Below are positions 37,786 through 42,496 of a DNA stretch of 64,000 bases, piece by piece; the first letter of the stretch is position 1; every line of letters begins with the position of its first letter. Source of the stretch: Promethearchaeota archaeon. Its GTDB lineage: Archaea; Asgardarchaeota; Lokiarchaeia; Sigyniarchaeales; SOKP01. Position numbers and translations under genes: made by a program. The DNA lies in the NCBI GenBank assembly GCA_019057795.1, contig JAHLWS010000075.1, positions 1 to 64,000 on the forward strand, given 5' to 3'. Under the pieces are notes generated by a model. It had not been told where the DNA came from, did no database searches, and worked only from the letters and a program-made list of their open reading frames with translations.

Positions 37786-39036
37786 TCATTCTTTCTTGTT
37801 ATTGAAATAATCTGATTCAAGATTAGGAAATATCTTTTTTTTTCTTCCTTCGCTTTTAAAATGAACTAAATTAAGATCTGTTAGCTTTTTAACGTGATAT
37901 TGAATAGTTTTGTGGTCAACCTTAAAGCGTTTTGTTATAATGCTATTCCATAAACCCGGTTCTTTTTCGATCATTTGTAAAATTTTTAATGTTAATTTGC
38001 TCTTACTTAATTGAAGATCAAGGTTTGAGATGGGATTCTTCTGGTAATACGGAAAATACGCTATAAAATTCCCGAGACGCTTTTTCCCAATAACTTTGTA
38101 GGTTTCTAATATATCGAGGTGCCACACGAGATTGCCGGCAGCTATTTCGATTTTTCTTAATAACTCGTTGAAATGAATACCAGGTTCATTTAGAATTAAA
38201 TCTATTATTTTGTTCCTATTTTCGTTCTCTAATACATCTTCTAAGCTTAGTCGATGAGCGCCTTTCTCAATTGGAATTGTTCTAGTTTTTAAGTATTGGA
38301 AATAATCTTTTTTTGAAATTAAAATAGCAAGCGAGGCCAACCCAATAGCACCAACTATCAAAAAGATTACCCAAATCCAATTATCAAAAACCTCAACAAT
38401 CTCAAAAAATGTGATGTAATATTCTGTGTCTGCTTGCAAATTAATAAGAGACCCTTCTAAAGAATATTCAGAACTGGACTCATTTAATTGTTCAATTGTA
38501 CTGATAACTTCCCACGCTTCTTGTGAAGGTTCGTATAAAGCTAAAGAATAACTATTACTTGGATTAAAGCCGTATAGAGATCTTTTAAGACTTCTAATAG
38601 TCATATTTTCTATCGTTGTGTTTGTATTTATTTGAAAGATGCAATCATATCTATTTTGAAATTGAGCTTCTCCTTTTTGTGGTCCTTGAGGCGGCTCAAC
38701 CATCCCAAAACCTTGCATAGTTACTTTAGAGGTGATTTTTAATGAAATCGGATTACTGTTATTAATAAGAAAGAAAATTTGACGGTTTTCAATTTTATTT
38801 TCATATTGGATTTCTAAGTCAATAAAAGAATCTGTCGAGATTTCAAGAATTATATTGTTAGAAAAAATGTATTTCACAGATTCGTTTGGGTAGATTTGGT
38901 CTTGAGTAGAAAAACCGGGTATATTTTTAGATTTATGAGATAAAACATTCGATATTAAGAAACTAAAATTAATAAAGATTAAAAGTAATATAAGAACGCT
39001 GAAATTTGATTTGTTCCTTAATTTTAGTTTAAACAT
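37786..39036 (-). CDS. Membrane-tethered winged-helix transcription regulator with extracellular domain
   Basis: Signal/TM, ~185-aa beta-rich ectodomain, TM, then tandem wHTH (NENRNKII..I..EPGIHFNEL...L.WHL..LE). Confidence 0.8.
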   Translation of the reverse strand: MFKLKLRNKSNFSVLILLLIFINFSFLISNVLSHKSKNIPGFSTQDQIYPNESVKYIFSNNIILEISTDSFIDLEIQYENKIENRQIFFLINNSNPISLKITSKVTMQGFGMVEPPQGPQKGEAQFQNRYDCIFQINTNTTIENMTIRSLKRSLYGFNPSNSYSLALYEPSQEAWEVISTIEQLNESSSEYSLEGSLINLQADTEYYITFFEIVEVFDNWIWVIFLIVGAIGLASLAILISKKDYFQYLKTRTIPIEKGAHRLSLEDVLENENRNKIIDLILNEPGIHFNELLRKIEIAAGNLVWHLDILETYKVIGKKRLGNFIAYFPYYQKNPISNLDLQLSKSKLTLKILQMIEKEPGLWNSIITKRFKVDHKTIQYHVKKLTDLNLVHFKSEGRKKKIFPNLESDYFNNKKE

Positions 39037-39122
39037 ATATGCAATCCATTTATTGATCGTTATAAATTGTAATTCAAAAATTAAAAAAAAATATTGGTTT
39101 ATAGATATAATAATTTTATTGA

Positions 39123-39818
39123 TTATTTTCTCTTTTTCACATAGATTACTGATCCGATTATTATTAAAGCAATAACGCCACCAATGCTCAATCCAACGAT
39201 TAAAATTGTGTTGTCAGGTATAAGTATAGTCCATGTTGAAAAATGAGATACTTCAGCAGTTAGATAACCATTTTGTATGGTTGTTGGAACGCTAACCCAT
39301 TCTTCCGTTGCTTCGTCGTAATAAGCCCACTGACCTACGCTATTATCGTTAGTCGCTAATATACTTAATCTCGCTCGCGTGAAAGTACCGTTGCATTCTA
39401 ATTTAACAACAAATCCTTCTTGATATTGAACTCGATTGCGATTTCTAATTTGGTATGTATTACCCTTTAATAAACCTAATTCTTTTTGTTCCTCAGTACA
39501 AGTCATATTCATATAAAGATCGCCTTCACCTTCAATTTCAAGCGCAAAATCTTTAGCGCCGATTTTTAAAGCTTCACAATCAAAGTTTATCTCTAAATTA
39601 ACGTTAGCGTTAACTCTTAACTGAGTTCTTGCTCTAAATCGAAACATAGTCATAGTGTTAGCTTGTATATGTTTTTGATATGTATCACCAGGAACTTCAA
39701 AAGTATCATCTGGATTGCCAACGGCTACGACATTGAAAGATGTAATCGTCGAAAATAGAATCATTAGAAAAAATGTGCCTAAGAGAATTTTACTTAATTT
39801 TTTCATTTTTTTTTTCAC
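39123..39818 (-). CDS. Single-pass surface protein with juxtamembrane HFS motif
   Basis: Signal peptide, beta-rich domain, WAYYD...W...PT.....LTAEVSHFSTWTIL, C-terminal TM + KKRK. Confidence 0.8.
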   Translation of the reverse strand: MKKKMKKLSKILLGTFFLMILFSTITSFNVVAVGNPDDTFEVPGDTYQKHIQANTMTMFRFRARTQLRVNANVNLEINFDCEALKIGAKDFALEIEGEGDLYMNMTCTEEQKELGLLKGNTYQIRNRNRVQYQEGFVVKLECNGTFTRARLSILATNDNSVGQWAYYDEATEEWVSVPTTIQNGYLTAEVSHFSTWTILIPDNTILIVGLSIGGVIALIIIGSVIYVKKRK

Positions 39819-40240
39819 TATATTGTTTTAATTATAACAAAAAAAGGGCATATAAAAAGGATTGAGGAATAAAATTACCCGATTGAAAAGGATAAAAAGT
39901 ACTTTTAATCTAAAGCAAATTTTAAAGTTTAAGTATAGTTTCAATTACTAGGATCATCCCTTAATTTATTTTTAATTACCATAAAATTTTTTAAATCAAT
40001 TTGCGGAAAGCTTTCTAAAATTTTTTGTTTATCTTTTTGATTATCTTTAAACATATTATTAGATAGTGAATTAAAGTCTCAAAAAATGAGGCTTCTTAAT
40101 CCTTAAGTTTTAATATTATCGTTTTGAAAATATTATTATATATAAAATATTTTAAAAAATATTAAAAAGAAATTCAGATTAAATTTATTTTAATAATATG
40201 AATTTTATTAGATTTTAATTTTAGAAATGGAGAAAAGCTT

Positions 40241-42496
40241 ATGAGCTTAAAAGAATTTACGAAGGAAATTTTCACGAGATATGGTTTCTCTGAAGACCAA
40301 ATTAATGTATATATCGTTTACCTTAGAGTCCCAAGAGCAACTTCGTCGGAAGTCTATTTAACTTTAACGGAAAAACACCCTGAATTGACGTATGAAAGCG
40401 TTATTGAAATTACTAATTGGTTGGTTGAAAAGAGCTTTCTCAAAAAAGTAACTGGAATTGTTGACAGGTTTATTCCATTAGAACCATACTTCGAATTATA
40501 CATCGGAGAGTCTAAGATGTTTAGGGACGAAATTGCTAAAATTAAAGACGCAATTTTAGAGGATCAATCAGATCGATTTGAAAGATTGCAAGCCATCCAA
40601 GATAAAAGCATTAATGAAGTAGAAACTGCTGTTGACGACCAGATAAAAGCTTTTTTTGAAGATTCAGACACTAAAACCAACAATAAAAGAGACAGAATTA
40701 ATAGTTCAAGAAACCGGTTTACGGACACATCTAAAACTTTGGAAGAAAATCTTCATTCTATTATGAGTACACTAAATTCAGATATCAAAAACATCTCAGA
40801 TACTAGAGTAAGAGAAAACGAAGCTACGGTAAATAAAACAAAGGATAGTTTAACAGGATTAATTTCAGAGTTATTATCTGATTTTTCAAAAAGAGTAGAA
40901 GATTTAGAAAGAGAACTGAAAAGGGATTTAGATGATCATGTAGATCGCCATCAAACTATCGCAAACGATCTTAAACCTAGAATGGAACAAATTCTTGAAA
41001 AATATTTGGAAAGAATGGACAAGATAGTCGTAGACCTTAAAGGAAGGATTTCAAATCTATTAAAAGAACACTTAAACCACCTTAAGAACGCCACCGACAC
41101 CCTTCAAACTAATTTGAAAGCAACAGTCGACGAAAGACATAGAACATTAACTGACCAAACCAATGAATTTAAAAGTATGACATTAACCTTAATTGATAAT
41201 CTTTTAGAACACGCTAATAGGTTTACAGATTTTTCGGCTGAAATGGGTAAAAAGGGATTTTTTTGGATGGGTAAAAAGAAAAAATATAAAGCAAGACATG
41301 AAACTACGATTCAATCCATTCTCAAATATACTGAACCTATGAAAGAAGATTTTACAAACACAAGTGAGACATATATAAAAGATACACGAAGTACTTCGGA
41401 CAACATGAAAACTGGCATCACAGATGTTATCACTTTAGAAAACGATAATGTCGTTAGCGAAACCAACGATTTAGATCATAAAGCACAAGAGACCATAAAC
41501 GTACAATTAGAAACGCTTGCAAGTGATATGTCGGGAGAGATCGATAATACTTTACAAACTGCCGTAAAGGATTGCTCCGATACCACTGTTAAGCTTAAAG
41601 ATTCGTTAGAGAACTCGCTTAAAACTCACAATAGACAATACGACGAAGCAATTAATAGACATAAAGACGAATCATTAAGGCACTATACTGCATATGACGG
41701 AGATATTAAAAGAATCAAAGAGGATTGGATTAGAGACCTTGATGATAAATTCACTAGCGGAAAAAGAGACAGTTCTGATAAAATTACCGCTGAAATTAAC
41801 TTGTGGGGCGACGAATCAGCAGACTTAGATAGAAACTTAAGTGAAATGCTTATTGATCATAAGTCTAAATACGAAGAAAATGCGAAAACCTTACAAAATA
41901 GTTTATCGAATACTACTCGAGACACAACACAAAACATCAAAGATGCGATCGCCGATTTCACACTCCAATTTATGAACTCCATTGACGACGCCACAGAGTT
42001 AGCCGAAAAGAACGAAGGAAAGCTTAGTGATATACACATCACTTCAAGTTCAATTCCAGAAATAATGGACATTACGACATGGCAGGTGGTAGGACGAGAG
42101 GCTCTAGTTGCAGCTATGAAGGATGCTATTTATAGGGTAAAATCTTCAATTATTATCGTAATGCCATACGTGCTTCCAGAGATTTTACAAGTTATAAGTG
42201 AATACGCTTATCAGAAAAAAGCAGTAAGATTCATGCTAACCTCGAGATTTGATATGGCAACCTACGGCGATATCATAAAAAAGATGATTGCGCTAGGCAA
42301 TATCCAATTCCGACAATTAAGTGGAGCCGGCGAATTCTTTGCACTAACCAGAGACGCTGAAGAAGTCATCATTGGTCCTGCATCGGAAAAAGAAGGAGAA
42401 ATGATAAGCGTGGTTTCCAATCAAACAGCCTATAGTATTCTCTATAGCCAGTTTATAGGGCCTATATTCCAGGCTAATTCCCGCCCAATAAAATAG
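40241..42496 (+). CDS. TrmB-like HTH + long coiled coil + TrmB/PLD-like C-terminal domain
   Basis: GFSEDQINVY..L N-terminus; ~500 aa of helical heptads; C-terminal SSIIIVMP...RDAEEVIIGP. Confidence 0.7.
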   Translation: MSLKEFTKEIFTRYGFSEDQINVYIVYLRVPRATSSEVYLTLTEKHPELTYESVIEITNWLVEKSFLKKVTGIVDRFIPLEPYFELYIGESKMFRDEIAKIKDAILEDQSDRFERLQAIQDKSINEVETAVDDQIKAFFEDSDTKTNNKRDRINSSRNRFTDTSKTLEENLHSIMSTLNSDIKNISDTRVRENEATVNKTKDSLTGLISELLSDFSKRVEDLERELKRDLDDHVDRHQTIANDLKPRMEQILEKYLERMDKIVVDLKGRISNLLKEHLNHLKNATDTLQTNLKATVDERHRTLTDQTNEFKSMTLTLIDNLLEHANRFTDFSAEMGKKGFFWMGKKKKYKARHETTIQSILKYTEPMKEDFTNTSETYIKDTRSTSDNMKTGITDVITLENDNVVSETNDLDHKAQETINVQLETLASDMSGEIDNTLQTAVKDCSDTTVKLKDSLENSLKTHNRQYDEAINRHKDESLRHYTAYDGDIKRIKEDWIRDLDDKFTSGKRDSSDKITAEINLWGDESADLDRNLSEMLIDHKSKYEENAKTLQNSLSNTTRDTTQNIKDAIADFTLQFMNSIDDATELAEKNEGKLSDIHITSSSIPEIMDITTWQVVGREALVAAMKDAIYRVKSSIIIVMPYVLPEILQVISEYAYQKKAVRFMLTSRFDMATYGDIIKKMIALGNIQFRQLSGAGEFFALTRDAEEVIIGPASEKEGEMISVVSNQTAYSILYSQFIGPIFQANSRPIK

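Follow-up and report, generated by a model that had tools for sequence, protein, structure and literature searches.

Two neighbouring genes with related ectodomains

The stretch of Promethearchaeota DNA analyzed here (64,000 nucleotides, contig JAHLWS010000075.1 of assembly GCA_019057795.1, G+C content about 30%, referred to below as the window) contains two neighbouring genes on the minus strand, which we call A and B. Homologues of both come almost entirely from Promethearchaeota (Lokiarchaeia) metagenome bins. Gene A encodes a small surface protein with a His-Phe-Ser (HFS) motif shortly before its transmembrane (TM) helix, and gene B encodes a membrane-anchored regulator with two winged helix-turn-helix (wHTH) domains. 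An earlier annotation of this DNA, here called the original prediction, had listed both open reading frames (ORFs), the position of the HFS motif, and the TM helix and tandem wHTH domains of B, and all of these exist as described. In our computations, A appears as a minimal GAIN-B/ZU5-like surface protein of the MAIN (Microbial Autoproteolysis INducing) class, and B as a membrane-bound tandem wHTH regulator with a paralogous ectodomain in which HFS is replaced by Glu-Tyr-Tyr (EYY). Coordinates of all features are collected in Table 1.

The ORF of gene A was called as 39123-39818 on the minus strand. Because all homologues begin at MKKLSK, translation probably starts at the ATG at 39806 and not at the GTG at 39818. 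The AlphaFold2 (AF2) model described below has a helix at the N-terminus (residues 4-21), followed by a low-confidence linker. Only about five residues separate the predicted signal peptide from the ectodomain, and a large N-terminal adhesive or enzymatic passenger is absent. The C-terminal region reads LTAEVS-HFS-TWTILI-PDN up to the TM helix, with HFS encoded by cat-ttt-tca (39245-39237, minus strand). Downstream of HFS, the protein thus consists of a 7-residue last strand, a 3-residue linker, the TM helix and a 4-residue tail, KKRK. The secretion signal is N-terminal and the anchor C-terminal to the domain, the latter being the protein's own TM helix and not a sortase or SLH anchor. The GxxxG motif of this helix is invariant in 29 close orthologues (alignment A1). 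Searches for other domains in A gave no Pfam, NCBIfam or PDB sequence match of note, and none of the 292 homologues that were collected has a Pfam domain.

We also note that the TM helix and KKRK tail of A share with the TM segment of the amyloid precursor protein the order of GxxxG followed by a basic stop-transfer sequence. A relationship between the two helices was considered and rejected (E about 0.5, not significant).

The cytoplasmic part of B belongs to the HVO_0163-type tandem wHTH class, in which a PF24266 HTH is followed by a second, ArsR/MarR-like wHTH. NCBIfam models describe the winged helices of B as ArsR/SmtB-like. Three more wHTH proteins of the PF24266 type (229-357 amino acids) are encoded in the same genome (C87:102102-102281, C38:78876-79073 and C4:8580-8759).

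Table 1. Positions of genes A and B, their protein regions and the associated DNA elements in the window.
Feature	Position	Strand	Description or basis
Gene A	39123..39806	-	227-amino-acid type-I membrane protein: signal peptide, predicted MAIN/GAIN-B-like domain, TM helix, KKRK tail
Signal peptide of A, residues 1-30	39717..39806	-	Predicted, by eye from sequence: basic N-terminus and hydrophobic core
Predicted MAIN/GAIN-B/ZU5-like beta-sandwich ectodomain of A, residues 35-199 (165 residues)	39210..39704	-	Model confidence about 95; structural matches
His-Phe-Ser of A, H188-F189-S190 (227-residue numbering), predicted F/S autoproteolysis site	39237..39245	-	Turn between last strands; near-invariant
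TM helix of A with GxxxG (G209, G213 in 231-residue numbering), then KKRK tail	39138..39209	-	Model helix 200-226
T9 run between A and B, archaeal terminator- or attenuator-like	39083..39091	-	8-13 T shortly past the end of the A ORF in almost all of about 30 loci
Gene B, 416-amino-acid membrane-anchored regulator	37786..39036	-	N-terminal signal/anchor, pseudo-MAIN ectodomain, TM helix, two winged helices
Ectodomain of B, residues 35-214 (about 180 residues), A-domain paralogue without cleavage motif	38395..38934	-	hhalign and A-profile match
Glu-Tyr-Tyr of B at the HFS position of A	38416..38424	-	hhalign alignment
TM helix of B, residues 220-240, then basic stretch SKKDYFQYLKTRT	38317..38379	-	Sequence and conservation
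Winged helix 1 of B (PF24266, HVO_0163 N-terminal HTH)	38050..38226	-	E 1.2e-15; 57.7 bits, cut-off 31
Winged helix 2 of B (HTH_24, ArsR/MarR-like)	37864..37998	-	E 1.7e-09; 37.5 bits, cut-off 21.9
Operator-like box GGGTAATTTTATTCC-TCAAT	39861..39880	-	Upstream of A in 30/30 loci
BRE/TATA-like element CCTTTTTATA of the putative A promoter	39851..39860	-	Invariant or near-invariant columns; directly downstream of the box; TATA-like element at 39851-39858

Predicted fold of the A ectodomain

A first AF2 model of A, computed from the 29 close orthologues only, was unusable (predicted local distance difference test, pLDDT, 47). With a diverse alignment of 60 sequences, pLDDT rose to 84.3 overall and to about 95 in the ectodomain. 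The model is all-beta, with H188-F189-S190 in the turn that joins strand 181-186 to strand 191-197, the last two, and the TM helix starts three residues after the last strand.

The original prediction had suggested a GAIN- or ZU5-like fold, and domains of these types, together with FIIND, fill the top ranks of the structural searches done with Foldseek and VIA-align. The Foldseek search of the PDB gave weak E-values (0.01 or higher), with the GAIN domains of BAI2, BAI3 and CD97, the ankyrin ZU5 domain and the FIIND of NLRP1 in the first rows. After re-alignment of the Foldseek candidates with VIA, all top nine rows were GAIN, ZU5 or FIIND domains, each alignment ending at model residues 196-204; the best match was BAI3 (Z 7.6, model residues 40-199 on chain 695-866). 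VIA-align against 48,161 chains also ranked the BAI3 GAIN domain first (Z 7.2, 133 residues, root-mean-square deviation 4.1), followed by CD97 and CELSR1. The CARD8 FIIND and the ankyrin ZU5 domain were among its top seven matches, and GPR110, GPR97, GPR56, NLRP1, GPR126 and UNC5b followed at lower ranks. Structural similarity of A to ZU5 and FIIND domains was in the range of Z 5-6.

Profile searches provided a transitive link at the sequence level. Weaker matches of the A profile were found in large, SLH-anchored surface proteins of Bacillota, which share the pattern ...YYYDE..W..V.G.V....I.VEVDHF(T/S)KFAV (hmmsearch E 1e-6 to 4e-4). When the profile of the A ectodomain was compared with these Bacillota segments, among which YfkN itself is not included, hhalign returned a probability of 97.7% (E 2e-12) over the last 42 columns only. 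The Pfam GPS (GPCR proteolysis site) model matches a distant relative (P0334) and not A; the weaker A-profile matches include a protein of 958 amino acids in which the matching stretch passes this model with 27.8 bits (cut-off 22.5). The Pfam ZU5 model (PF00791) had no match in A or in the 60 family members at E-values up to 10, and the Bacillota relatives gave sub-threshold ZU5 matches only (E 0.007-0.026).

The likeness could be that of a generic beta-sandwich, in which case A would be a surface or envelope protein of an ordinary archaeal kind and belong to a different fold family. Glycosidase-associated beta-sandwich domains were indeed present among the structural matches (Z about 5), Z never exceeded 7.6 in a search whose tool rates values below 8 as middling, and A has no direct Pfam or PDB sequence match. 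Two independent searches nevertheless put GAIN first, with one superfamily on top and alignments over the full domain, the profile link to segments of the GPS/MAIN type is significant, and the HFS motif lies exactly at the homologous turn. On account of this dominance of one superfamily, the whole-domain coverage, the profile link and the position of the motif, we assign the A domain, with moderate confidence, a GAIN-B-like beta-sandwich fold, and we consider the generic explanation very improbable.

Conservation of the HFS motif

HFS is invariant in the 29 close A orthologues. The 60-sequence alignment, which has a mean column identity of 26%, contains 8 near-invariant columns, and H, F and S account for three of them. 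An exhaustive search for the A family with a hidden Markov model among 1.8 billion representatives yielded 117 relatives, nearly all of which, when full-length, keep x-H-F-S-x-W-T at the domain end. In relatives with tandem domains (2-4 repeats), HFS closes every repeat. Among A relatives that are 20-30% identical, the tandem-domain proteins included, little else than HFS is conserved. Judged from these alignments, conservation of the motif is far beyond chance. The histidine is lost in two to three A orthologues, which have SFS or DFS instead.

The same motif is central to a class of domains that was recently described in bacteria and archaea. MAIN domains are GAIN-B-like sandwiches that cut themselves between the F and S of HFS, as shown experimentally in six tested domains, after which the two fragments remain bound to each other; the evidence includes Edman sequencing and an S-to-A mutant that is no longer cut (Brogan and Rudner, bioRxiv, 13 May 2026, 10.64898/2026.05.12.724683). 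By homology to the tested MAIN domains, A would be cleaved at the F/S bond as well.

Alternatively, A might have a MAIN/ZU5 fold that is not cleaved, with HFS serving a structural role and the protein acting as an accessory that stabilizes or chaperones B, much as ToxS does for ToxR and TcpH for TcpP. Many ZU5 domains and some GAIN domains are uncleaved. The few A orthologues with SFS or DFS would fit such a role, and so would the paralogue B, which clearly functions without the motif (see below). Structure alone, however, hardly explains why H, F and S are near-invariant at a mean identity of 26% and recur in every repeat of tandem proteins, and in the six tested MAIN domains cleavage has been proven at this very motif, located in the corresponding turn. 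We therefore regard an uncleaved accessory as unlikely, though worth keeping in mind.

Several related proteins were encountered during these searches. A locus search with the close alignment of A returned Promethearchaeota metagenome-assembled genomes (MAGs) and three bacterial motif matches only. The latter, on contigs from Flavobacteriales and Chloroflexota MAGs (L074, L075 and L076), have a C-terminal motif of the WxYYD...HFS type and are 36-47% identical to residues 139-209 of A, which fits a wide spread of MAIN-type domains. A second A-type paralogue of 306-323 amino acids occurs in several Lokiarchaeial genomes (G222:C8:12894-13811, G121:C28, G077:C41; P0242); its domain halves are split by an insertion of about 65-90 residues, and HFS is kept. 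Finally, an Asgard surface protein of 559 amino acids (L036:1878-3557, G007) has a MAIN-like end with H-T-S in place of H-F-S (AEVNHTSLWALV) before its TM helix.

A paralogous domain without the motif in B

Direct BLASTP comparison of A and B was not significant (E 0.45-16), and paralogy of the two ectodomains is visible with profiles only. In an hhalign comparison of the A family profile (60 sequences) with the B family profile (33 sequences), the two ectodomains aligned end to end with a probability of 99.0% (E 8.2e-18, 160 columns). The alignment places the HFS of A opposite the EYY of B. It also reproduced the segment pairs that the original prediction had matched by eye (AYYDEATEEWVSVPT with ALYEPSQEAWEVIST, and RVQYQEG with QFQNRYD). 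When the A-family profile was run against its own genome, A (2e-95) and B (2.8e-14) were matched and no other protein.

The absence of HFS from the B ectodomain, also claimed earlier, extends to the whole family: no HFS-like motif was found in this domain among 120 B orthologues, and 106 of the 120 have EYY, EYF, DYY or DYF at the equivalent position. Because the hhalign result, the profile matches in the own genome and the EYY-type residues of the orthologues agree, we conclude from profile comparison that B carries a paralogous domain that has lost HFS.

Linkage of A and B in Lokiarchaeia

In order to determine the distribution of the A family, 251 Asgard genomes were searched with the profile. 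The family was found in 48 of 54 genomes of the same taxonomic family and in all five genomes of the sister family. In every case, the genomes that were inspected contained a weaker A-profile match in an ORF of 395-430 amino acids, located about 100 bp downstream of A on the same strand. All 29 genome loci that were fetched have A followed by B, and none of these B proteins contains HFS. Metagenome contigs, searched starting from B-like matches, gave the same picture, with A upstream of B on the same strand at each of the 53 loci with enough upstream sequence. At three loci of the sister family, the same pair was present and PF24266 was confirmed.

Order, orientation and spacing of A and B are thus kept in 82/82 loci, although A diverges to about 45% identity and the flanking synteny decays. 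The original prediction had named conservation of the gene pair as a check on its proposal; the pair is conserved at the genome and the metagenome loci alike, and adjacency, order and orientation hold throughout this Lokiarchaeial order.

The neighbourhood of the pair is less stable. A TrmB-like gene with a long coiled-coil interruption (40241-42496, plus strand), for which only weak matches to ZorA-like coiled coils were found, is divergent from A and separated from it by a 434-bp intergenic region. Such a divergent TrmB-like gene lies beside A and B in 20 of 29 loci and is lost in other genera while the A-B pair persists.

Further arrangements connect the MAIN domain with regulators of the B type. 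P0305 (481 amino acids, high G+C, found on two contigs) is a single chain made up of an HFS domain, a TM helix, PF24266 and HTH_24. When its ectodomain was used in a word-indexed search, P0305 alone was returned, and no fusion family was established. P0253 (384 amino acids) combines an A-type HFS ectodomain with a hybrid TM helix and a B-type cytoplasmic part. It sits at the syntenic place, the next gene being the same nitroreductase that follows B in the window. Its ectodomain is 59% identical to the nearest free-standing A representative, and the ectodomain of a free-standing A from the same sample reaches 84% identity with it. In another Asgard family (L034:148-2060, L038:28-1768), a homologue of the cytoplasmic part of B (152-201 amino acids, E 1e-15 to 1e-18) is encoded directly upstream of a TM-anchored protein with two HFS domains; the 201-amino-acid version of this wHTH protein has a short hydrophobic N-terminus and no ectodomain. 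At a further locus, a single HFS protein is followed by an ArsR/DUF7347 regulator. Taken at the sequence level, the fusions and the adjacent wHTH and tandem-MAIN genes appear to link the MAIN domain to the regulator type of B independently.

The in-frame fusion of an A-type HFS ectodomain to a B-type cytoplasmic part at the syntenic place (L077:3-1205, contig Ga0114919_10074434) precedes the nitroreductase gene. It may be natural or assembly-derived, and it looks like the product of a deletion between the two TM-coding segments.

Linkage does not by itself demand a joint function. A and B could be neighbours through tandem duplication only, A being a sheddable surface protein that, like those of the MAIN preprint, releases its outer part into the environment, and B a separate one-component membrane sensor. 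Paralogous ectodomains imply duplication, the genes are separated by a terminator-like T-run, and only release functions are reported in the MAIN preprint. A mere legacy of duplication is, however, hard to reconcile with 82 conserved loci amid divergence of A and decay of synteny, or with the fusions and the wHTH/tandem-MAIN arrangement, which recreate the link independently. In addition, A has no passenger domain to release, and related promoter boxes precede MAIN genes beside these regulators (see below). Independent neighbours are, in our assessment, rather improbable.

The promoter region of A and the A-B junction

An operator-like box lies about 45-75 bp before the A start codon, immediately upstream of an element resembling the B recognition element (BRE) and TATA box, which archaeal promoter architecture suggests to be the promoter of A. 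The box family has the consensus TGGGAA-N5-ATTCCTCAAT, and TGGGAA-N5-ATTCCTCAAT-CC-TTTTTATA is common to all 30 loci. In some genomes, the box contains a perfect palindrome of 14 bp, GGAATAATTATTCC. The box of the sister family is less strictly conserved in form, being a looser version.

The exact box occurs once in the 4.95-Mb genome. No second box was found when the whole genome was scanned with the pattern and with a position weight matrix, which scored 40.6 here and 18.8 at the next best site. Matches with one mismatch were as numerous as those of a reversed-pattern control and lacked a promoter context. In the family with wHTH and tandem-MAIN genes, AAAAAAGTGTTCCTCAAAT is found between the two genes, before the MAIN gene, with a common TTCCTCAA core, and related TTCCTCAA boxes precede MAIN genes in two other families. 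A dimeric winged-helix protein would be the obvious candidate for binding such a box. Activation is suggested by the position of the box just upstream of the BRE/TATA-like element.

The T-run between A and B may be a terminator-like signal, in which case B would either be transcribed by read-through, at a reduced level, or from a promoter of its own. With regard to proteolytic processing, homologues of M50 site-2 proteases are present in the genome, and a presenilin/signal peptide peptidase (SPP)-type protease (PF06550) was not found in it.

A proposed mechanism

The observations can be combined into a scheme in which A cleaves itself, A and B contact each other in the membrane by way of their paralogous domains, shedding of A switches B, and B acts on the palindrome in the A promoter. 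We give this combination a little better than an even chance. Shortly after folding, a His-assisted N-to-O acyl shift, as in GAIN and MAIN domains, would split A between F189 and S190. Beta-sheet hydrogen bonds to the 7-residue last strand would then retain the outer fragment of about 160 residues. A and B would associate in the membrane via their paralogous sandwiches and their small-residue-rich TM helices. We expect the two proteins to lie side by side and to interact because of the genetic linkage, the GxxxG motif of A, the small-residue-rich TM helix of B and the near-absence of linkers.

The subsequent steps are speculative. Force, a ligand or envelope damage might remove the outer fragment of A and thereby change the state of B. 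B, freed or destabilized, might either dimerize on the palindrome or be processed by a site-2 (M50) protease, with a change in transcription as the result. The palindrome abutting the BRE/TATA-like element of A would be the likely target of B, with transcription of A, and possibly of other genes, being altered. In this way A would serve as a sheddable co-sensor, with B feeding back on its level. After shedding, the remaining stub of A would have four cytoplasmic residues, and any signal would therefore have to travel via B or, where the two are fused, via the attached winged helices.

Several points weigh against this scheme. The orthologues with SFS or DFS suggest that cleavage is not indispensable everywhere. 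The fold of A is called from the enrichment of one superfamily and from the motif, with middling scores and no single strong match, and A itself is without a Pfam or PDB sequence match. P0305 and P0253 are both singletons and are suggestive without forming a family. The adjacency of A and B can be a legacy of the duplication that their ectodomains imply. The binder of the box could be a factor other than B, and the conserved T-run between the genes may mean that they are transcribed separately. Even with these reservations, we prefer the self-cleaving, B-coupled A to the alternatives discussed above. The fuller claim, that the pair is a working Asgard transmembrane device in which a self-cleaved co-receptor controls a tethered factor with an uncleavable copy of its domain, which in turn drives the co-receptor's promoter, is in our view possible but doubtful.

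Comparison with known systems

ZU5, GPS and Nup98 autopeptidase domains were united earlier, and bacterial surface versions were predicted (Zhang et al., 2012, PMC3482391). Like MAIN proteins such as Bacillus subtilis YfkN, A has a probable GAIN-B-like sandwich with HFS before the last strand, a signal peptide and a C-terminal anchor, and the last 42 residues of its ectodomain are related to Bacillota segments of the MAIN type. The MAIN proteins that were surveyed are large (158 kDa on average) and carry adhesive or enzymatic passengers (10.64898/2026.05.12.724683). A, in contrast, has 227 amino acids, no passenger, and its own TM helix instead of a sortase or SLH anchor, and its partner is a transcription factor, to which it is fused in rare cases. 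According to the preprint, no transmembrane signalling has been linked to MAIN domains or to their membrane-side fragment, and its text mentions neither Asgard nor helix-turn-helix (10.64898/2026.05.12.724683).

The GAIN domains of adhesion G-protein-coupled receptors (adhesion GPCRs; BAI3 4DLO, CD97, BAI2, CELSR1) are the best structural matches of A. In both, an H-x-S/T motif lies in the last beta-turn next to the membrane, and the last strand would stay on the TM helix after cleavage. Unlike these receptors, A lacks the helical GAIN-A subdomain, the GPS cysteines (no cysteine flanks HFS) and the seven-transmembrane domain, having one TM helix instead. A second protein, the membrane transcription factor, would provide the output, and sequence similarity is transitive only. 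ZU5 and FIIND domains (PIDD, NLRP1, CARD8, ankyrin, UNC5) belong to the same superfamily by fold and have an HFS-type motif. Their eukaryotic versions are cytosolic, however, the ZU5 domains of bacterial toxins are N-terminal in giant RHS proteins, and the Pfam ZU5 model misses A.

RsgI anti-sigma factors with SEAL domains (PMC10556640) and Notch share the proposed logic of constitutive juxtamembrane autoproteolysis, non-covalent hold, dissociation, intramembrane proteolysis and transcription. Their fold is unrelated (SEA-like), and their cleaved and signalling parts are one polypeptide, whereas A and B are two paralogous proteins except in the rare fusions.

The original prediction compared B to ToxR. 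As in ToxR/ToxS and TcpP/TcpH, a membrane transcription factor with one TM pass is encoded next to a small partner, likewise single-pass, whose sole domain is an ectodomain, and a logic of the ToxR/ToxS type is a reasonable expectation. The topology of B is reversed, with the ectodomain first and two ArsR/MarR-like wHTH domains last, instead of an N-terminal OmpR-type wHTH. B is thus an analogue of ToxR-like regulators and not a member of that group. In addition, the ectodomain of A is paralogous to that of B, and the system is archaeal.

The wider idea, that the locus holds a prokaryotic analogue of adhesion-receptor signalling, draws partial support from the fold, the paralogous ectodomains and the conserved pairing, and it was in part anticipated by the 2026 description of MAIN domains with HF/S cleavage. 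The domain kind has been known since 2026 and was predicted in 2012. In the papers that we searched and read, we found no account of a minimal stand-alone form, of its uncleavable paralogue on a membrane transcription factor, of a strict pairing in Lokiarchaeia or of a single conserved operator.

Implications for Asgard biology

GAIN-domain autoproteolysis is the hallmark of animal adhesion GPCRs. The A-B locus may be the first link of a microbial MAIN domain to signalling into the cell, and it is a compact candidate for this missing link, with two small genes, one candidate operator and an uncleavable paralogue as a built-in control. Natural fusion variants offer a second comparison. If the proposal is true, GAIN-type autoproteolysis would here be coupled to signalling for the first time outside eukaryotes, and this in their closest archaeal lineage. 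Arguments on how eukaryotic cell biology arose draw on Lokiarchaeia. Should both cleavage and coupling be confirmed, it could be asked directly whether this mode of signalling, autoproteolysis followed by dissociation, is older than eukaryotes, and the pair would be one of the first defined surface-to-gene pathways in Asgard biology.

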